NCBI GenBank assembly: GCA_017991515.1
Contig: JAGOQI010000003.1
Coordinates: 5,921-69,920, forward strand
Source: Minisyncoccota bacterium
Lineage (GTDB): Bacteria; Patescibacteriota; Minisyncoccia; Phycocordibacterales; UBA9973
DNA length: 64,000 bases
Direction: 5' to 3'
Positions within the stretch are counted from its first letter, which is position 1. Each line of letters begins with the position of its first letter. The notes below the pieces were generated by a model. That model worked only from the letters and a program-made list of their open reading frames with translations. It made no database searches and had not been told where the DNA came from. Below are positions 8,651 to 61,221 of this stretch, piece by piece. Made by a program: the position numbers and the translations under genes.

Positions 8651-11521
8651 TTAAGCCTTAATTACAATGTTAATAATTCTATTAGGAACAATCACTACTT
8701 TTAGTATTTCCTTGCCCTCTGTGTGCTCTTTTATTTTTGGTAACTCTAGCGCCATCTTCTCTACTGCTTCTTCGCTCTCATCTTTTGAAATAGTTATTTC
8801 TCCACGAAGTTTACCATTTATTTGAACCCCTATAGTCACTTCTTCATCAACAACAAGCGCCTCGTCATACTTGGGCCAAGCAGAAAGATGGATACTTTCT
8901 TTCTCTCCGAGCTCATACCACAACTCTTCGGTAATATGTGGAGCAAATGGAGATAAGAGTTGAAGGAAAGTTTTATACTCTTCTTTAGAAATATTTTCTT
9001 GTTTATCCCATTCATTAAGAAGTGTCATCATCTGAGCAATAGAGGTATTGTATTTATGGTCTTCTATATCCTCAGTCATTTTTTTAATAACCTTGTGAAG
9101 AGTTTTTGATGTTTCAGTTTTTTCAGAAATTTTTTCTTTGACTTTCCAAACTCTTTCTAAAAATCTTCGCACACCTACAACACCATTTGGATCCCATGGA
9201 TAGTTCGTAGTCACTCCATACGGACCCATAAAGGCTAGGTACATTCGAACAGTATCCGTTCCTAATCTTTCCACTATTTCGTCCGGATCAATTACATTAC
9301 CTTTGGACTTACTCATTTTGTTGCCATCTGGCCCAAGTATCAATCCCCTATTTCGCCTTATTTTATAAGCCTCATTTTCCTTTACAAAACCTAAATCGTT
9401 CAGGGCTTTCACCCAAAAACGAGAGTATAGTAAGTGCATAGTAGTATGTTCTGCTCCACCCATATACAAATCTATCGGCATCCAAGAAGCCATTTTTTCT
9501 GCACTAGCAAAAGTATCTTTGTTTTTTTTATCTAGATATCGATAAAAATACCAAGAAGAGTCTACGAAAGTATCCATAGTTTCAACTTCCGGTTTCCATC
9601 CTTTGCCAAATATTTTTTCTGTTCTTTCAAAAAGTTCCTTACTACGAGCAAGTGGTGATGTGCCATCTGGTGTGTGGTCAACATCAGCAGGTAGAGTCCA
9701 AGGCAAATGTTCGTCTGGCACAGGATGTGCTTTGCCTTCAGGATCGTAAACTATAGGAATAGGTGTGCCCCAATATCTCTGACGCGAAATTCCCCAATCT
9801 CGAAGTTTATAAGTCTTAGTCATTTTCCCCCCAACAAATTCTACAATTTTTTCTTTCGCTTCCTCAGAATTTAATCCATCAAATTTATCTGAGTTTATCA
9901 AAAGTCCATTTTCAGTAAATATTTCCTTTTTATAAATGTACCTTTCAACGAGCTCTGCTTCTCCTACGGGCGCTGGATTATTTCTCATTAACTCAATTGC
10001 TTTTTTAGGATCAATCCATTCATAACTGAAACCAGCATCAGCCTCATCTTTAGTTAAAGATAGTTCACTTTTTGTTGACTCATCAATTTCAACAACAAAG
10101 CCATACGCTCTTCTTTCGTACATTCTATTATTATCTATAAGTTTTTTATATTGAACATGAAGACTACCTAAAGATTTAATCACATTAGATTTATAACCGG
10201 TTTCTTCTAAAACTTCTCTAAAAACCCCTTCTTCTGGTGTTTCATCTTTTTCAATAGAACCTCCTGGTAATCTCCATTGATTATGTTTATTTTCAAGCTG
10301 TAATAATATTTTATTATCCTCTTTTCTTGTTATAACAGCTAAAGCGCCTATATTACTTTTTACAATTTTATGATTTCCTTCTGGAATAATAGATTGTAAG
10401 ACTACTTCTTTAATTGGTAAATCAAACTTTTTAGCAAAATCAAAATCTCTTTCGTCATGTGCGGGTACAGCCATAATAGCTCCAGTACCAATATCACTTA
10501 ATACATAGTTTGTTATCCAAATAGGTATCTCTTTCTTTGTAGCAGGATTGATAGCATTAAAACCAGCGAAGATACCTGTCTTTTCTTTTTCTTTAAAATC
10601 CCTGACTGCTTGCTCTTTCAGGGTCACTTCCACATAGTCTTTTATTTCATTTGACGCAGACCAACCCATATCTATCCATTTCTTTGCAAGTCCAGCAGAA
10701 ACACCAATAAATGTCGCTCCAAAAATAGTATCTGGTCGAGTAGTAAAAACTTTTATAGGATGTTCTGGTTGTCCTTCTATAGGAAAGTCTATTTCTGCTC
10801 CCTCACTTCTACCTATCCAGTTCTTTTGTGCTTCTTTGATAGAGTTTGGCCAATCAAGAGGTTCCAAATCATCAATGAGTCTATCTGCATACTTTGTAAT
10901 ACGAAGCATCCATTGGTCTTGATCTTTTTGTACTACTTCTGTACCACAACGCTCACATTTACCATCTACTACTTGTTCGTTGGCAAGTATTGTTTGATCT
11001 TTTGGGCACCAATTTACTTTGGTATTTGCTCTATAAACCAAATCTTTTTCTAAAAATTTATTGAACATCCACTGAGTCCATTTATAATATTCTGGATCAC
11101 AAGAAACTATTTCTTTATCCCAGTCAAACATAGCTCCCATGCTTCGAAGCTGAACACGCATTTTGTCCATCTGTTCGTAAGTCCAAGTTTTTGGATCTGC
11201 ACCAAGCTTGATAGCTGCATTTTCAGCAGGAAGACCGAAGGCGTCAAAACCTATAGGATATAAAACATTTAGACCTTGCATTCTCTTATAGCGAGCAAAA
11301 ATATCTGGCACTGCATATGCATACCAGTGGCCCACATGGAGGTTGCCGGAAGGATAGGTAAACTCTACCAGCTCAAAATAGTTCTCTTTACCCCTTACTT
11401 CGTCTTGAGTTTTATAAATACCATCGTTCTCCCATTTCTGTTGCCATTTAGACTCTATGGTCTTGTGGTAGTATTTTTTATTTTCTGTAGGGACTTGCCC
11501 TGAGCCTGCCGAAGGGGTCAT
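8651..11521 (-). CDS. leuS: leucyl-tRNA synthetase with an inserted NUDIX hydrolase domain
   Basis: 956 aa; class I HIGH (HVGHWYAY) and KMSKS; CP1 editing domain (TTRPDT...GTGAIMAVPAHDERD); anticodon-binding and C-terminal domains; NUDIX box at aa ~419-441. Confidence 0.95.
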   Translation of the reverse strand: MTPSAGSGQVPTENKKYYHKTIESKWQQKWENDGIYKTQDEVRGKENYFELVEFTYPSGNLHVGHWYAYAVPDIFARYKRMQGLNVLYPIGFDAFGLPAENAAIKLGADPKTWTYEQMDKMRVQLRSMGAMFDWDKEIVSCDPEYYKWTQWMFNKFLEKDLVYRANTKVNWCPKDQTILANEQVVDGKCERCGTEVVQKDQDQWMLRITKYADRLIDDLEPLDWPNSIKEAQKNWIGRSEGAEIDFPIEGQPEHPIKVFTTRPDTIFGATFIGVSAGLAKKWIDMGWSASNEIKDYVEVTLKEQAVRDFKEKEKTGIFAGFNAINPATKKEIPIWITNYVLSDIGTGAIMAVPAHDERDFDFAKKFDLPIKEVVLQSIIPEGNHKIVKSNIGALAVITRKEDNKILLQLENKHNQWRLPGGSIEKDETPEEGVFREVLEETGYKSNVIKSLGSLHVQYKKLIDNNRMYERRAYGFVVEIDESTKSELSLTKDEADAGFSYEWIDPKKAIELMRNNPAPVGEAELVERYIYKKEIFTENGLLINSDKFDGLNSEEAKEKIVEFVGGKMTKTYKLRDWGISRQRYWGTPIPIVYDPEGKAHPVPDEHLPWTLPADVDHTPDGTSPLARSKELFERTEKIFGKGWKPEVETMDTFVDSSWYFYRYLDKKNKDTFASAEKMASWMPIDLYMGGAEHTTMHLLYSRFWVKALNDLGFVKENEAYKIRRNRGLILGPDGNKMSKSKGNVIDPDEIVERLGTDTVRMYLAFMGPYGVTTNYPWDPNGVVGVRRFLERVWKVKEKISEKTETSKTLHKVIKKMTEDIEDHKYNTSIAQMMTLLNEWDKQENISKEEYKTFLQLLSPFAPHITEELWYELGEKESIHLSAWPKYDEALVVDEEVTIGVQINGKLRGEITISKDESEEAVEKMALELPKIKEHTEGKEILKVVIVPNRIINIVIKA
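9917..10369 (-). other. NUDIX hydrolase domain (aa ~385-535 of LeuRS) inserted between the CP1 editing domain and the second half of the catalytic core
   Basis: NUDIX box GGSIEKDETPEEGVFREVLEETG (Gx5Ex7REUxEExGU pattern); flanked by LeuRS sequence DFDFAKKFDLPIKEVV upstream and ENGLLINSDKFDGLNSEEA...YKLRDWGISRQRYWG downstream. Confidence 0.8.
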
Positions 11522-13161: not shown

Positions 13162-13234
13162 TGGACCCTACAGGACTCGAACCTGCCACCCCCTCATTGC
13201 AAATGAGGTGCTCTACCAGATGAGCTAAGGGCCC
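13162..13234 (-). tRNA. tRNA-Ala (anticodon TGC)
   Basis: GGGCCCTTAGCTCATCTGGTAGAGCACCTCATTTGCAATGAGGGGGTGGCAGGTTCGAGTCCTGTAGGGTCCA; G3.U70 identity pair present. Confidence 0.9.
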
Positions 13235-38160: not shown

Positions 38161-39630
38161 ATGAAAAGTAAAGAGTCCCAGCTAAATACCATATTTGAGG
38201 CTAGCCAAAAGACTTTTGAAGCTATTGAAAAAGAGCTAGTAGAAAAGGCATATCATTTTACTGAGAAATACCATACAGATCAGAAAAGAAACAGTGGTGA
38301 GCCTTACTTTTACCACGCCATAGAGGTTGCTAAAAACTGCGCCTCTTTAGGAGCTGATGCCACCACTATTGCTGGTGCTCTTTTGCATGACACACTCGAA
38401 GATACAGAAGCGACAGAAGAAGAGATACTAGAAAACTTTGGTGAAGAAGTTTTATTTTTGGTTTCAGGAGTTACAAAACTTGGTAAGTTGAAATATCAAG
38501 GAGTAGAAAGACATGTGGAGAGTATGCGAAAATTTTTTATTGCACTAGCTGAAGATGTTCGAGTACTACTTATCAAGCTCGCTGACAGACTTCACAATGT
38601 TCAAACACTTGAGCATGTTCGCCCTGAAAAACAAAAAAGAATAGCTATCGAAACTATAGAAGTTTATGCTCCGCTTGCTGGACGCCTCGGTATGGGCAAG
38701 CTCAAAGGTCTACTTGAAAACTACGCCTTCCCTTTCGCCTATCCAGAAGAATATAAAGAAACAAAAAAATTCTTGGACGAAACTGTACCGGAAGCCATCG
38801 GTGTTGTTGAAATTGTAAAAAAAGAAGTAGAAGAAATTTTAATTTCTTTTGGAGTAGATGCCTTAGTAGAGGCTCGGGTAAAACATACTTATAGTCTTTA
38901 TAGAAAACTTGTGAAATACAATATGGAAAAAGAAAAAATCCATGACATTGTAGCTCTGCGAATATTGGTAAAAAATGTAGCGGATTGTTACCAAGTCTTT
39001 GGTCTTATGCATATGCAATGGAAACCTATACCAAATAGAGTAAAAGACTGGATAGCGGTACCAAAGCCAAATGGTTATAAATCACTTCATACAACAGTCA
39101 TCACTCCAGGCGGCGTAGTCGAAATACAGATAAGAACAGAGGAGATGCACTCTGATGCCGAACTAGGCATAGCTTCACACTTAGTTTATAAAGAAGTAAC
39201 AACAGGTGAAAAAGTTCCACAAAAACAACAAAGAGCTTGGTTGGCCCAACTAAAAGAACTTTCTAATTTAGTAGAAAGTGTTGATGATATGAATGAGCTC
39301 AAACTCGACTTTTTCAACCATCGTATCTTCGTATTCACACCCAAAGGAGATGTGGTAGACCTTCCAGAGGATTCTGGTCCTATAGATTTTGCTTATGCTA
39401 TTCACTCAGACATCGGAGACACACTGAGCTCTGTAAAAATAAATAGAAAAATGTCGAGCATAGAGACAGTATTAAAAAATGGAGATATCGTAGAGATAAC
39501 TACTAGCAAAAATGCACATCCAAGTAGTAAATGGTTAGAATATACAAAAACAAGTTTTGCTAGACGCAAAATTAGACACTATATAGAAGAGCACGGAGGA
39601 TTGGCGGAAAAATTTTTAGCAAAAGAATAA
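38161..39630 (+). CDS. rel: bifunctional (p)ppGpp synthetase/hydrolase, short RelA/SpoT homologue (HD + synthetase + TGS, no ACT domain)
   Basis: 489 aa; HD hydrolase motif (HDTLED), synthetase region (..ALRILVKNVADCYQVFGLMH..) and TGS-like end (FVFTPKGDVVDLPEDSGPIDFAYAIHSDIGD). Confidence 0.8.
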   Translation: MKSKESQLNTIFEASQKTFEAIEKELVEKAYHFTEKYHTDQKRNSGEPYFYHAIEVAKNCASLGADATTIAGALLHDTLEDTEATEEEILENFGEEVLFLVSGVTKLGKLKYQGVERHVESMRKFFIALAEDVRVLLIKLADRLHNVQTLEHVRPEKQKRIAIETIEVYAPLAGRLGMGKLKGLLENYAFPFAYPEEYKETKKFLDETVPEAIGVVEIVKKEVEEILISFGVDALVEARVKHTYSLYRKLVKYNMEKEKIHDIVALRILVKNVADCYQVFGLMHMQWKPIPNRVKDWIAVPKPNGYKSLHTTVITPGGVVEIQIRTEEMHSDAELGIASHLVYKEVTTGEKVPQKQQRAWLAQLKELSNLVESVDDMNELKLDFFNHRIFVFTPKGDVVDLPEDSGPIDFAYAIHSDIGDTLSSVKINRKMSSIETVLKNGDIVEITTSKNAHPSSKWLEYTKTSFARRKIRHYIEEHGGLAEKFLAKE

Positions 39631-51563: not shown

Positions 51564-53696
51564 TTAATTTTGGGTGAGTAATGCTCTCACTTTTATGTTA
51601 TCTGCTAAAGACGTTGGAGTGTACCTTATATAGGTTGTCTCATTCCCTTTATCAGTAGTATCATATGCGCCCCAAGCACTACCATCGTTAGTAGATTTTT
51701 CAAAAACTCCAGAAGATTCTGCAGTAGTTGTGTCATCTAAAAGCAATCCGCCTGTTTCCGCATTATAAAGTCTAATTCGTAAGTTCGGTACTGTACTACT
51801 AAACGCAGTAGAGAATCTCCAAGCAAATATTTTGTTTATTGTCGAAGATTGTCCAACTGATGGTTGATAGTGTGAGTCAGTAGTATTATCTTCGTACACT
51901 AGAGTCATGCTATATATTCGTGCAGGAATACAATTCTCTCCTAAGATTTTAAATTCAAACATAAACTGGATAGCCGCTCCAGGTATGACACCAGTAAAAT
52001 CATGTGTGTCATCGAGCGCATTCCAAGCACCAGAATCGTCAGAAATTCCAGAAGTACGATAAAACATACGGTACGGTTCAGGTTGTAATCCGAGAGTACC
52101 AGAACCTAATTGCAAAGCATTATTTACATAAACACGATATAAAGTAGAAGCATCAGTAGTATCAAGAGATGGAGTTATGAGTCGCTGATATGGAGCTTGT
52201 CCTGCGTAAGCCCAGTGGACACCCGTCGGTACTGCATACAACTGGTTTAAGGTGACAGACGCAGTTACTCTGGCCATATAAGAGATACCACCTTCCGACC
52301 ACACTGAGAAAGGTAGTGCTGATATGGCCGGGTGTGGAGTAGCTCCCGAGTCCGTGGTGCTCTGATCGTACTGCTTATCATCAGAAAGAAATATGTGATC
52401 AAAAGGATCACCAGTTGTATTATATTTTGTCACATAGCTTCTAGCACCAGCTGTCCCAGAACTCATAACAATAAGCCTATCCATACTGTCAGCAATCTCA
52501 ACAGAACTTAAAGCAGAGTTAAGTGGGTATGTCACAGAACCACCAGGAGGAACCTCTATCATTGCATCACTTTGCCATGCAGGGTTACCACTAGTGATAT
52601 TACTAAGAGCCGCTCTATAAACTCTTGTTGTCGTCACAAAATACAATGATTCTACACCACTAGCAGGTCCATGGGTAAGTACCCCAATTCTTCCATTGTT
52701 TAACTGTGAACAAGTTCCAGTAGGTGTTTGGGCGGCAGTCACTAAAACAAATGCGGAGACAGATTTGCCAGAAGAAAGCCCAGCAAGAGGTGCTCGTATA
52801 TTGTATTTATACACCCTATTTGTAGTTGTTGTACCATCTATAACATAAATATAGTGCTGTAAAAAAGAGTCTCTGTCTTCAATAGCAGATCCGCAGGCGA
52901 TAGTGTTCGTAACAGTAGAAGCATCTGCCAACCAGTAACATGCTCGGATATTGTCAGTGGTAGTAGCTGCTGGTATTGTGGTTCCACCATTTGAAAATAC
53001 CGAGTCTCTTAAACCTTTTACTACAAACAATCCTCCGTTAGCCGGTGTAGCATTTGTTGTTGCTATTACTGCACGCAATTCCTCAACTACATATGCTCCA
53101 TTGGTAATAGTCCCAGCACTAGCAGTCAGTGTGATACTCGTGTCCGAAACAATAGAAGCAACTTCATACCATGTAGTAATTGATCCAGGGACAGTAGAAC
53201 CAAATCCTATACGAGAACCAACAGCAACTCCATCTGTAAGCCATGTCGTACCACTACCAGTAACTGTTGTGCCACTCACTGATGCTGTACCAGTAATGTG
53301 AAAGTCTCTCGTCATACGAAAACCTCTTACTGTATGAACTGTAGCTGTAGGAAAAGTAACGGTAATAAATCCATCCCAATTAAAAACCCCGGTTGAAATT
53401 GTATGTTGATATTTTATTATTCTTCTTGTAGCAGCTGCTGTTCCATTATCGATAAGAAATACCCAATTAACATCTGGATTAGACGTAGTGACAACATATG
53501 GAAAAACAGCAGCAATAGCAGTGCTGGCTTCCATTGGTCGAGCGAGCCCGATAGGCATGGGGCCCACAAATTTATCCAAACTGGTTGCACCAGTCCTCTG
53601 TTGAATTAAAACACCTAGATTAGTTTTACTGGGATCATAACTTGTGTATGGAGTAACAGCTCCAGTAAAAACATGTTCTATCGCTCGTTTTGCCAT
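51564..53696 (-). CDS. hypothetical large Thr/Gly/Ser/Ala-rich protein (710 aa), no signal peptide; composition atypical for this genome (structural/beta-rich?)
   Basis: long uninterrupted ORF; visibly GC-richer coding DNA than neighbours; abuts flanking genes with 0-8 nt spacers. Confidence 0.6.
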   Translation of the reverse strand: MAKRAIEHVFTGAVTPYTSYDPSKTNLGVLIQQRTGATSLDKFVGPMPIGLARPMEASTAIAAVFPYVVTTSNPDVNWVFLIDNGTAAATRRIIKYQHTISTGVFNWDGFITVTFPTATVHTVRGFRMTRDFHITGTASVSGTTVTGSGTTWLTDGVAVGSRIGFGSTVPGSITTWYEVASIVSDTSITLTASAGTITNGAYVVEELRAVIATTNATPANGGLFVVKGLRDSVFSNGGTTIPAATTTDNIRACYWLADASTVTNTIACGSAIEDRDSFLQHYIYVIDGTTTTNRVYKYNIRAPLAGLSSGKSVSAFVLVTAAQTPTGTCSQLNNGRIGVLTHGPASGVESLYFVTTTRVYRAALSNITSGNPAWQSDAMIEVPPGGSVTYPLNSALSSVEIADSMDRLIVMSSGTAGARSYVTKYNTTGDPFDHIFLSDDKQYDQSTTDSGATPHPAISALPFSVWSEGGISYMARVTASVTLNQLYAVPTGVHWAYAGQAPYQRLITPSLDTTDASTLYRVYVNNALQLGSGTLGLQPEPYRMFYRTSGISDDSGAWNALDDTHDFTGVIPGAAIQFMFEFKILGENCIPARIYSMTLVYEDNTTDSHYQPSVGQSSTINKIFAWRFSTAFSSTVPNLRIRLYNAETGGLLLDDTTTAESSGVFEKSTNDGSAWGAYDTTDKGNETTYIRYTPTSLADNIKVRALLTQN

Positions 53697-59361: not shown

Positions 59362-61221
59362 TTATTCTAAAATCTTTTTCAAATCTTTATGAGAAATTTC
59401 TTGAGGATTTGTATTTTCTTTTTCTTGTATAAGATCTTCTTGTTTTTGTTTTAATGGAATTTCTACAATATTTTCCTCTGATGTTTTATTTCCAGAAGTT
59501 GCTTTTAAAAGAGCTTCTTTTAAAAGATTTCTGTGAGCTTCTGTTGGGCCCCTTTCTGCATGCTTAACAGGTGGAACAGTTTCAGAAAGAGTTTTTTCTC
59601 CAGTAAAAGGTGCTTTTTGTTGAGGAACTGGTTTGAAAGATTTTTCTTTTTTCTCAGAAGAACTATCAATCGAGTCTAGTAGTTTAGAGAGTTCAGGACT
59701 TGGCTTTATTACAGAACCTTCTTCTGGTTTCAAATCAGTTTTTTCAAATATTTTTTTAAAAGGATTATGAGTTTTTGGCTGTATAGGCTTTTGTGTTTCT
59801 ACTTCAATAACTTTTTCTACTGAAGTATTAGTTGACTGTAGTTTCTTTTCATAAACATCTTTATTTACAGGAACATATGGCTTCTTTTCTGTTGGCTTAG
59901 CAGGTTTATTATTTTGAATATCAGACTCATCAGTTTTAAACCAAGCGGCAATATTTTCTTCAACCCTATCTTTTGGTTTTGCAAAATTTGCTCGAGTCCA
60001 TTCAATAACATCATTCCGATATGTTATAGCTGGTTTTTGTATTGGAAATAAGGTTTTGGCAGAAAATGGAGGTGAACCAATATCATTAATCATAAGGGAC
60101 AAATAAATCTGCGCCATGCCTAAATTTATCAGGTCTGTGGCGGTAAACTGTGGGGCGTAAACTTTCTCTAAAAGCTCAGCATCAAGTGGTCCTACACGAA
60201 ATGAAATACTAGTTCCAACGTTACCAAAAACAGCGTCTCTTACAGATTCTTCCATTTGGGCTATGTATTGGTGAGCAATGATAAGAGCAAGTTTATACTT
60301 ACGAGCTTCTGACAAAATATTAGCAAAAGATTCGTTGGCAAAAGACTGGAATTCATCGACATAGAAATAAAAAGGCGGAAGATCTGCCATGCGAGAATAA
60401 GAAACATCTGCACGACTCATGGCTGCAATATAAATCTTAGTAATAATCATAGAACCAAGAAGACTAGTATTTTGTTCGCCAATACGGCCTTTTGAGAGGT
60501 TAACAATAAGAATTTTCTTATTGTCCATAATGTCTCGAACATCAAAACTAGACTTCGGTTGTCCGATAATATTTCTTATCAAAGGGTTGGCTGTAAACTG
60601 ACCGATTTTGTTTTGAATTGCCGCACCTGCTTCTTGCATATATCTCTCACCATATTTTTCAAATTCATCAGTCCAAAAAGCTTTTACAGATGGGTCTGTA
60701 ATACTTGCAACCACCTTTTTTCTAAAAGCTTTATCAGAGAGCATTCTGTTCACCCCGAGAAGTGTTGCGTCAGGATATTCTAAAAGTGCCAAAAGAATAT
60801 TATTCAAAATATATTCCATACGAGCACTCCAAGCATCTACCCAAATTTTCTTGAAGGTACTCATAAGACCAGAGGCTACAAAGTGTCTCTTATCTTCCCC
60901 TATGTCTTCCAGCATGTTAAAAGACACAGGATGCTCGAGGTCAAAAGGAGCAAAGTAGACCACATCTTTTATGCGGTGCTCAGGTATGTAGTCGAGCATT
61001 TTTTCAGCAAAAGAGCCGTGAGGATCAAGAACAGCTACACCTTCTCCATTTTGGATATCTTGGATAGCCATATTTTCAAGAAGTGTAGACTTACCTACAC
61101 CCGACTTTCCCACTACATACATGTGTCGAGTACGGTCGCGAGTTTTTATACCAAAACGAGTTTGTTGATTACGAAAATTTGTCTCGCCAAAATAAGTTAT
61201 TCGCTCACCTTCATTTTGCAT
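59362..61221 (-). CDS. soluble FtsK/HerA-superfamily ATPase resembling type IV secretion coupling proteins (TraD/TraG/VirD4-like), with low-complexity C-terminal tail
   Basis: 619 aa; Walker A VVGKSGVGKST; ..YFYVDEFQSFANESFANILSEARKYKLALIIAHQYIAQM.. resembling the Walker B / TraG-D C-terminal region; no N-terminal TM. Confidence 0.5.
   Translation of the reverse strand: MQNEGERITYFGETNFRNQQTRFGIKTRDRTRHMYVVGKSGVGKSTLLENMAIQDIQNGEGVAVLDPHGSFAEKMLDYIPEHRIKDVVYFAPFDLEHPVSFNMLEDIGEDKRHFVASGLMSTFKKIWVDAWSARMEYILNNILLALLEYPDATLLGVNRMLSDKAFRKKVVASITDPSVKAFWTDEFEKYGERYMQEAGAAIQNKIGQFTANPLIRNIIGQPKSSFDVRDIMDNKKILIVNLSKGRIGEQNTSLLGSMIITKIYIAAMSRADVSYSRMADLPPFYFYVDEFQSFANESFANILSEARKYKLALIIAHQYIAQMEESVRDAVFGNVGTSISFRVGPLDAELLEKVYAPQFTATDLINLGMAQIYLSLMINDIGSPPFSAKTLFPIQKPAITYRNDVIEWTRANFAKPKDRVEENIAAWFKTDESDIQNNKPAKPTEKKPYVPVNKDVYEKKLQSTNTSVEKVIEVETQKPIQPKTHNPFKKIFEKTDLKPEEGSVIKPSPELSKLLDSIDSSSEKKEKSFKPVPQQKAPFTGEKTLSETVPPVKHAERGPTEAHRNLLKEALLKATSGNKTSEENIVEIPLKQKQEDLIQEKENTNPQEISHKDLKKILE

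Follow-up and report, generated by a model that had tools for sequence, protein, structure and literature searches.

The window, i.e., the 64,000-nucleotide stretch of DNA analyzed here, contains a leuS gene on the reverse strand (positions 8651-11521) with an uninterrupted reading frame of 956 aa. Its product is identical to the NCBI protein P0121, recorded as 'class I tRNA ligase family protein' from a Candidatus Pacebacteria MAG, and scores 924.7 bits against TIGR00396, the equivalog of bacterial leucyl-tRNA synthetase (LeuRS), which is above the cut-off of 548.4. Judged by its sequence, the gene is best explained as encoding a working bacterial-type LeuRS of a Paceibacteria (Patescibacteria/CPR) genome. 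The protein aligns colinearly over its full length with the LeuRS of T. thermophilus (1h3n) and E. coli (4aq7) (E 1e-211), and it shares with them the HIGH and KMSKS motifs, the T-rich motif and the editing Asp.

All parts of the gene described below lie on the reverse strand. According to profile and structure alignment, the N-terminal half of the catalytic Rossmann core (aa 1-232) occupies positions 10826-11521, with the HIGH motif present as HVGH (aa 62-65; 11327-11338). It is followed by the first part of the CP1 editing domain (aa 233-375; 10397-10825), which includes GTGAIMAVP, the T-rich motif TTRPDT (aa 260-265; 10727-10744) and AHDERD (aa 354-359; 10445-10462), and which corresponds to positions 1-142 of the 185 positions in PF13603. 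The last part of CP1 (IFTENGLLINSDKFDGLNSEEAKEKIVEFVGGKMTKTYKLRD, aa 534-575) is found at 9797-9922, and the second half of the catalytic core together with the anticodon-binding and C-terminal domains at 8654-9796, with KMSKS at aa 735-739 (9305-9319). The editing domain scores 196 bits with PF13603. TTRPDT and AHDERD are invariant in 70 relatives, some relatives have Q/M/E-HDERD at the AHDxRD position, i.e., the motif is kept, and the post-transfer editing motifs are fully retained in relatives with and without an insert.

Unlike the T. thermophilus and E. coli enzymes, the LeuRS in the window is missing the leucine-specific domain (T. thermophilus 577-634): T. thermophilus residues 582-636 have no counterpart, and the query jumps from aa 732 to 735. 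Since this domain is not universal in bacterial LeuRS, its absence does not alter the assignment of the host enzyme.

A NUDIX domain within the CP1 editing domain

Between the two parts of CP1 lies a NUDIX cargo cassette of type T3 (aa 376-533; 9923-10396). In the alignment to T. thermophilus LeuRS, this 158-aa enzyme domain stands in place of residues 364-375, a loop of only 12 residues. The preliminary description placed the NUDIX domain at 9917-10369, corresponding to aa 385-535, and took it to replace a linker following CP1. A NUDIX domain is indeed found there, but the full insert has the borders given above and lies inside CP1, after roughly three quarters of the editing domain. The Pfam editing-domain model is broken at position 142 of 185, and the isolated CP1 crystal constructs 4k47 (192 aa) and 2ajg (196 aa) run approximately 50 residues past the insertion point. 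A peripheral loop on the surface of CP1, between ...LPIKEVV and ...GLLINSDKF, accommodates the complete NUDIX domain.

PF00293 matches aa 392-514; the score is 57.1 bits for the full-length protein and 63.1 bits for the excised insert, compared to a gathering score of 21.1. The Nudix box GSIEKDETPEEGVFREVLEETGY (aa 421-443; 10193-10261) fits GX5EX7REUXEEXGU exactly (G-SIEKD-E-TPEEGVF-RE-V-L-EE-T-G-Y), in line with the canonical box reported earlier, and the insert has the alpha/beta/alpha sandwich of the NUDIX fold, in which a loop-helix-loop carries the box. The box includes the catalytic residues R435, E436, E439 and E440; the glutamates, whose degeneration would indicate a dead domain, are all present. 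From its sequence, the NUDIX hydrolase in LeuRS is apparently active. The GC3 of the insert is low.

Could the nested architecture be an artefact, either of a chimeric contig or of two separate genes annotated as a single one? This would be compatible with the fact that the exact protein P0121 has been recorded from one contig. Against it, the frame is continuous, the LeuRS halves around the insert are colinear with solved structures, and the AF2 model is confident both for the host and for the insert. Moreover, the same architecture is seen in dozens of independent assemblies (JGI, ENA, Logan, NCBI), e.g., in the related proteins P0122 on 3 contigs and P0123 on 12. Because these assemblies of relatives share the continuous architecture, the gene is not an assembly chimera, and we regard the chance of any artefact as negligible. 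The insert is a true fusion, as first proposed.

The literature searched holds no description of a LeuRS-NUDIX architecture, which agrees with the preliminary assessment, and PF13603 is listed as never hosting insertions in a 2026 survey (PMC13114784). A parallel among aminoacyl-tRNA synthetases (aaRS) is IleRS with a GNAT domain (NF040702, ileS_w_GNAT), according to NCBI also a class Ia aaRS with an extra enzyme domain, but with another host, another cargo and presumably another site.

Variable cargo at the CP1 loop

A survey of relatives, as the preliminary description had suggested, showed a NUDIX domain at exactly the same CP1 loop in at least 63 of the 120 nearest LeuRS sequences, mostly from Paceibacteria. 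These NUDIX domains belong to at least two unrelated lineages. An unrelated cargo occupies the loop in 8 of the 120 and no cargo is found in 49; a HAD domain is present in one GTDB representative. At this position, syntenic leuS orthologues are either empty or have a NUDIX from a different lineage or an unrelated domain (HAD, nucleotidyltransferase-like, unknown). Cargo enzymes are found at two hot spots in CP1, where NUDIX domains have been captured repeatedly, and they comprise NUDIX, HAD phosphatase, serine hydrolase, ASCH, nucleotidyltransferase-like and Ham1 domains. In one relative, site 1 is occupied by a DUF559 endonuclease. The last part of CP1 is wholly missing in some relatives.

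The syntenic orthologues differ only in the cargo block. In comparison with the NUDIX-less orthologue L001, a block of 508 nt in the window (9920-10427), made up of the cassette and its diverged junctions, has no counterpart; L001 has 121 nt instead. In the relative P0125, the loop measures 32 aa. Further orthologue comparisons show analogous variable blocks. In one leuS pair whose first 960 nt are 100% identical, one member has a NUDIX where the other has an unrelated domain, and the breakpoints fall on conserved motifs. Presence and absence are patchy among near-identical strains, and the junction positions of the cargo are mosaic. Identities in the insert region were taken from segment-wise BLAST, as the 120-sequence MAFFT alignment is unreliable there. 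The NUDIX is one allele of a strain-variable cargo cassette at an insertion hot spot, and strains probably trade the block through homologous recombination, with the flanking motifs GTGAIMAVPAHDERD and RDW..SRQRYWG as anchors. A candidate recombination-anchor motif, LRDWGISRQRYWG (9767-9805), belongs to the second half of the catalytic core and overlaps the last part of CP1. This cassette pattern within LeuRS is described nowhere in the literature searched; the wider picture is new.

The variation in cargo also bears on the model put forward in the preliminary description, in which the NUDIX could serve LeuRS as a built-in module for pre-transfer editing by hydrolysing mis-activated aminoacyl-adenylates. 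The position inside the editing domain and the intact catalytic box are consistent with such a role. However, orthologues with 86-98% identical cores have no NUDIX or an unrelated cargo, the canonical motifs for post-transfer editing are conserved in full with cargo or without it, and related NUDIX proteins exist free-standing. In addition, NUDIX chemistry acts on pyrophosphate linkages and not on acyl-phosphate anhydrides. We therefore find this model very unlikely; the NUDIX is probably not an integral step of LeuRS proofreading. Overall, the interpretation given in the preliminary description finds partial support.

Inteins and homing endonucleases resemble the cassette in their patchy presence among close relatives, their use of conserved sites in essential genes, their spread by recombination through conserved flanks and their compositionally distinct inserts. 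Unlike them, the cassette has no splicing residues, no endonuclease in the NUDIX cargo, and a catalytic motif of its own under purifying selection, and it is retained in the mature protein. The insert starts with QSIIP..., ends with ...YIYKKE and is followed by IFTENG; there is no intein/Hint Pfam match, and the N-terminal Cys/Ser, C-terminal His-Asn and +1 Cys/Ser/Thr of an intein are absent, so intein identity was rejected. A transposon-like origin was rejected because only short, low-identity AT-rich repeats came up when the surroundings of the insert were searched for target-site duplications and terminal inverted repeats. In a search of a viral structure library, phage NUDIX proteins were no closer than cellular ones.

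Selection and relatives of the cargo

The cargo is under purifying selection, with a dN/dS of about 0.11, and its dN matches the value for the host gene. The Nudix-box residues of the insert in the window are conserved in 62 related inserts, and 61-62 of the 62 retain the catalytic Glu triad. About 10% of the cargos deviate at box residue E7 or R15. The idea that many cargos are dead was rejected, as the deviations mostly affect E7 or R15 and leave the metal-binding Glu triad intact.

These results weigh on the view of the cassette as a selfish or near-neutral passenger, where domains hitch-hike in a permissive CP1 loop and spread between alleles in an intein-like manner with little or no benefit. 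Such a passenger might account for the patchy distribution, the mosaic junctions, the low GC3, the deletable surrounding region, the DUF559 endonuclease in one relative and the altered E7 or R15 residues. Nevertheless, the strong purifying selection, the conserved Glu triad, and the lack of a mobility function, target-site duplications, terminal repeats and intein splice residues argue against it, and we consider it unlikely.

By three methods, the nearest characterized neighbors of the insert are ApnA/DIPP-type hydrolases, with small margins. This set includes the Aquifex Ap4A hydrolase 3i7u, the T. thermophilus Ap6A hydrolase Ndx1 (1vc8), M. tuberculosis Rv2985 (9cxx), DIPP1/NUDT3 and yeast DDP1. 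Their identity to the insert is only 18-26%, with a small margin over MutT- and ADPR-type NUDIX proteins, and they are free-standing, unlike the NUDIX of the window, which is nested in a domain of another enzyme. A marker of the ApnA/DIPP subfamily is an aromatic residue some 16-18 positions after the box. In the insert, 15 residues separate the Nudix box from Y458, a position at which other cargos have F/Y.

The excised insert scores below the curated NCBIfam cut-offs for TIGR00586 (35.5 vs 97.9 bits), PRK10776 (36.8 vs 148), RppH (PRK00714.1-4; 34.7 vs 139) and YtkD (34.5 vs 154.4). The identities of MutT 8-oxo-dGTPase, RppH and YtkD were rejected on these scores, and no NUDIX subfamily is assigned because no NCBIfam equivalog reaches its cut-off. 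Among the PADLOC defence models, only PDC-S07 matched the insert (39 bits), confined to the Nudix-box region (aa 19-86 of the domain), and the other cargos gave no match; an anti-phage defence identity was rejected, as this is generic Nudix-box similarity and not a full-length match.

Among 1.84 billion representatives, no close free-standing donor of the T3 NUDIX was found, i.e., none closer than approximately 40% identity; the best free-standing match has 72.6 bits, and the top matches are about 35-44% identical. Free-standing Patescibacteria NUDIX proteins of about 160 aa (e.g., P0402, P0396, P0247, P0282) are 33-47% identical to the LeuRS cargos over nearly their full length. They are encoded by separate genes, one beside gmk-adk-ndk and one after argS, and by sequence they are plausible donors and functional equivalents of the cargo.

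Possible functions of the nested hydrolase

We favor, with a probability of roughly 0.6, that the insert is an autonomous nucleotide-polyphosphate hydrolase nested in LeuRS, carried as a dispensable, recombining cassette and not integral to proofreading. The NUDIX domain would fold independently on flexible tethers, and the REx2EE glutamates with Mg2+ would hydrolyse a nucleoside-polyphosphate compound. As substrate, a dinucleoside polyphosphate (Ap4A-Ap6A, side products of aaRS) or a related nucleotide would be most likely. Placed inside an essential, constitutively expressed translation enzyme, the cargo would be guaranteed expression.

The CP1 domain captures the 3' CCA end of tRNALeu, and the cargos might instead repair acceptor ends or counter toxins by acting on damaged or toxin-modified tRNA ends, with turnover driven by an arms race. 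The role of the NUDIX would then be to remove the 3'-pyrophosphate that toxSAS-type toxins attach. Variability and swapping between strains look arms-race-like, NUDIX domains have been captured repeatedly at two sites of this tRNA-end-binding domain, and the cargo is kept under purifying selection. toxSAS toxins pyrophosphorylate the tRNA CCA end, which hydrolases can reverse (10.1101/2021.04.30.441581), MenT nucleotidyltransferase toxins extend tRNA acceptor stems (PMC10435456), and the NUDIX proteins MutT and NudG hydrolyse 3'/5' polyphosphates of (p)ppGpp (PMC5845004). On the other hand, this explanation is entirely inferential, the PADLOC match is generic, the free-standing NUDIX relatives are found in nucleotide-kinase contexts, Ham1 and HAD cargos are better explained by nucleotide-pool cleaning, and the value of such repair would be limited if restricted to tRNALeu. 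We regard it as rather improbable. The same holds for a broader version, where the two CP1 hot spots of Patescibacteria form a 'cargo display' of interchangeable domains beside the tRNA 3'-end pocket that repair or detoxify modified tRNA acceptor ends, or aminoacyl-adenylate-mimicking toxins. Hydrolase and transferase domains would in that case be traded between strains by recombination under arms-race selection, and an essential gene would contain a novel type of variable locus for immunity or repair.

The LeuRS described here is doubly nested, with an enzyme in an editing domain in a Rossmann fold, and its host domain has been reported never to host insertions. The CP1 loop naturally tolerates inserts of 0-450 aa and provides a ready place to build engineered LeuRS fusions. 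Should ApnA or the tRNA end be what the NUDIX acts on, aminoacylation would be physically linked to the clearance of nucleotides or alarmones, or to the repair of tRNA. Collectively, an essential housekeeping enzyme holds a strain-variable, recombining cassette locus with different small-molecule hydrolases, and such gene-content variation is unusual for genome-reduced CPR bacteria.

Position of the NUDIX domain in LeuRS

The leuS gene (8651-11521, minus strand) encodes 956 aa in one unbroken ORF, and the preliminary description was right to read it as one continuous LeuRS-NUDIX frame and a true fusion. Its product scores 924.7 bits against the NCBIfam model TIGR00396 (cut-off 548.4), i.e., it is a bacterial-type leucyl-tRNA synthetase, and aligns colinearly with the T. 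thermophilus LeuRS 1h3n (E 1e-211). The motifs HVGH (aa 62-65), TTRPDT (the T-rich editing motif, aa 260-265), AHDERD (aa 354-359) and KMSKS (aa 735-739) are present, and the catalytic and editing motifs of LeuRS itself are invariant in relatives with or without an inserted domain, hereafter cargo. The leucine-specific domain is absent: T. thermophilus residues 582-636 are unmatched, and aa 732 runs directly into KMSKS (window 9305-9330, aa 732-739). NCBI holds the unchanged protein (P0121) as 'class I tRNA ligase family protein [Candidatus Pacebacteria bacterium]'.

The Pfam NUDIX model PF00293 matches aa 392-514 with 57.1 bits (gathering score 21.1), and the Nudix box GSIEKDETPEEGVFREVLEETGY (aa 421-443, nt 10193-10261, minus strand) fits GX5EX7REUXEEXGU exactly, which confirms a complete NUDIX domain with a canonical box. 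None of the six reading frames of the window contains another Nudix box. Elsewhere, the window has a gene for a TrwB/VirD4-like type IV coupling protein (59362-61221, minus strand) and an ORF of 710 aa that matches nothing in Pfam (51564-53696, minus strand). It also encodes a short Rel/SpoT homologue (38161-39630, plus strand; 489 aa; HD_4, RelA_SpoT and TGS domains), so (p)ppGpp metabolism is present in this genome.

In the 1h3n alignment, residues 15-375 pair with T. thermophilus 2-363 and residues 534-732 with 376-581, and the 158-residue insert (aa 376-533, nt 9923-10396, minus strand) stands for a 12-residue loop. The preliminary description, in which the domain takes the place of a linker joining CP1 to the catalytic core, is wrong in this detail. 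Because the insert breaks the Pfam editing-domain model at position 142/185, and the isolated CP1 crystal constructs 4k47 (192 aa) and 2ajg (196 aa) reach about 50 residues past the insertion point, the insertion loop is within the CP1 editing domain and not downstream of it. The nesting is double, with NUDIX in CP1 and CP1 in the Rossmann fold. LeuRS relatives of 759-789 aa (P0132, P0144, P0191-P0199 and others) keep the HDERD editing motif and lack a CP1 segment of about 35 aa (NSGxFxGL..EA..KI) after the insertion site (counterpart, window 9797-9922); with an AHD-to-RDW spacing of 42 aa they are minimal CP1 variants. The insertion region is peripheral enough for this whole segment to be deleted in some relatives.

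A second insertion hot spot lies near the CP1 start, at about position 20 of PF13603 (approximately window 10760-10790, aa 245-255), and is empty in the window's protein. Its cargos in relatives are DUF559 endonuclease, ASCH, alpha/beta or serine hydrolase, Ham1 and tandem NUDIX domains (P0151, P0156, P0186, P0196, P0212, P0217, P0267, P0306). P0212 (1376 aa) combines Ham1, NUDIX and HAD in one protein, and P0306 has three NUDIX stretches.

Distribution and exchange of the cargo

The preliminary description had called for a survey of related LeuRS sequences. Among the 120 closest full-length relatives, counted from the best-scoring LeuRS matches returned, at least 63 carry NUDIX at exactly the same loop, 8 have unrelated inserts of 87-172 aa (one weakly nucleotidyltransferase-like), and 49 have no cargo, with merely 0-36 residues at the loop. 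The same junctions recur in 20 further LeuRS fragments. In GTDB species representatives, the site holds a canonical box in 18 loci, an altered box in two, HAD_2 in one and a domain of unknown type in one. The HAD_2 phosphatase (locus L025, 3001-3975; 41 bits, DFDGV motif) occupies the loop alone, with no NUDIX. Carriers are labelled, as deposited, Paceibacteria, Nomurabacteria, Magasanikbacteria, Saccharibacteria and a few low-GC Bacillota MAGs. A T1-like NUDIX, T1 being one of the cargo types, occurs at this loop in the MAG loci L016, L022, L023 and L027 (GC 28-32%), whose labels are Bacilli, Clostridia or Bacillota, pointing to spread outside Patescibacteria or to bins with wrong labels.

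The cargo behaves like a cassette that can be exchanged. Over a 735-column core alignment, the closest relative is the insert-free P0125 (86.3% identity), followed by P0126 (81%), whose NUDIX is just 27% identical to the window's, whereas the four proteins with the window's NUDIX type (68-71% identity) have cores merely 55-76% identical. On neighbour-joining trees built from identities the cargo states are scrambled, and the cargo differs between sisters whose cores are 94-98% identical. The window and the P0125 locus are fully syntenic (MGMT-like gene, DUF5671, leuS, TPR membrane protein, MurJ), and window 9920-10427 is the sole part without a counterpart at the DNA level. The tRNA gene adjoining the MGMT-like gene (window 13183-13234) is 100% identical over 52 nt to positions 1-52 of L001, a syntenic orthologue locus without NUDIX; its orientation is opposite relative to leuS. 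Another syntenic pair, L004 and L006 (about 89% DNA identity), has 558 nt vs 123 nt at the same place.

The clearest case is the pair of loci L088 and L089, which are 98.9% identical across 3.6 kb upstream and match 60/60 in every window of the first 960 nt of leuS. Identity collapses solely at leuS nt ~1020-1680, where NUDIX is swapped for an unrelated 114-aa domain, and returns to 100% from nt 1681. The breakpoints fall on the conserved GTG...AHDERD and RDW..SRQRYWG motifs. Compared segment by segment with the window's protein, relatives are also mosaic: P0229 is 70-73% identical in CP1a and NUDIX and 45-52% in the synthetic core, while P0123 and P0124 are 68-69% identical in NUDIX and 49-50% in CP1a. 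The insert also differs in composition, with a GC3 of 0.152 vs 0.281 in the remaining leuS, below every other 158-codon stretch of the gene. The insert has neither target-site duplications nor terminal repeats, and it carries no mobility gene or intein motif; homologous recombination via the conserved flanks would therefore be the simplest mechanism of exchange.

Constraint, origin and possible function

Compared with the gene of P0122, a relative of the same architecture, the insert has a dN/dS of about 0.11, with dN 0.198 vs 0.180 in the remaining leuS. Degenerate catalytic glutamates would have marked a dead domain; the window's box is intact, and across 62 NUDIX cargos the metal-binding glutamates are retained in 62, 61 and 62, the Arg in 58, and deviations mostly affect the first Glu. 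The cargo enzyme is under constraint and is probably active.

No close donor for the window's NUDIX emerged from exhaustive HMMER searching of 1.84 billion representatives (best match 72.6 bits). When all are scored on one BLAST scale, T3, the window's type, matches small free-standing NUDIX proteins at 70-80 bits and the nearest other LeuRS cargo, T9, at 78 bits, but the large T1/T2/T4/T6 group, whose members are closest to one another, at 49 bits or less. This pattern points to two or more independent captures, with the caveat that the free-standing set was chosen by similarity to T3. T1 has free-standing Patescibacteria relatives of about 160 aa (42-47% identity), which evidently work by themselves. 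Free-standing cargo relatives directly follow secY-gmk-adk-map-ndk (L090, 6001-6489) and the arginyl-tRNA synthetase gene argS (L092, 4001-4444).

The nearest characterised NUDIX enzymes include the Aquifex Ap4A hydrolase, T. thermophilus Ndx1 (Ap6A hydrolase), M. tuberculosis Rv2985 (diadenosine polyphosphatase) and the DIPP/DDP1 enzymes. None of the NCBIfam equivalogs tested was above cut-off. The earlier suggestion of Ap4A survives as the leading substrate guess. ApnA/DIPP-type neighbours lead other NUDIX classes by small margins, so a dinucleoside-polyphosphate-type substrate is the strongest candidate but should be treated only as a lead.

A built-in pre-transfer editing module, as also proposed, is disfavoured because orthologues without the domain exist and because of NUDIX chemistry. 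In the best-supported reading, the NUDIX would be an autonomous pyrophosphohydrolase, carried as dispensable, recombining cargo in a permissive peripheral CP1 loop. However, this does not account for the repeated capture of NUDIX domains from several lineages, at two sites and in every case in the domain holding the tRNA 3'-end, or for strain-level turnover alongside purifying selection. That recurrence would fit a more adventurous and, in our judgement, improbable explanation in which the cargos have modified tRNA acceptor ends as substrates, e.g., the 3'-pyrophosphate added by toxSAS. This modification is removable by other hydrolases (10.1101/2021.04.30.441581), and the related (p)ppGpp is cleavable by NUDIX enzymes (PMC5845004).

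Known parallels and significance

Consistent with the preliminary description, the literature searched contained no account of a LeuRS with an embedded NUDIX. Aminoacyl-tRNA synthetase hosts go unmentioned in a 2017 Nudix-clan review, and a 2026 domain-insertion survey classes the editing domain of LeuRS as an insertion-exclusive module, with zero events in which it is the host (PMC13114784). Many examples sit in public databases under generic names. The curated NCBIfam exception model NF040702, 'isoleucine--tRNA ligase, N-acetyltransferase domain-containing', means that LeuRS is not alone among class Ia synthetases in having an embedded enzyme domain. Each of the two component families is well known; what is added is an apparently undescribed phenomenon, a strain-variable cassette locus within an essential synthetase.
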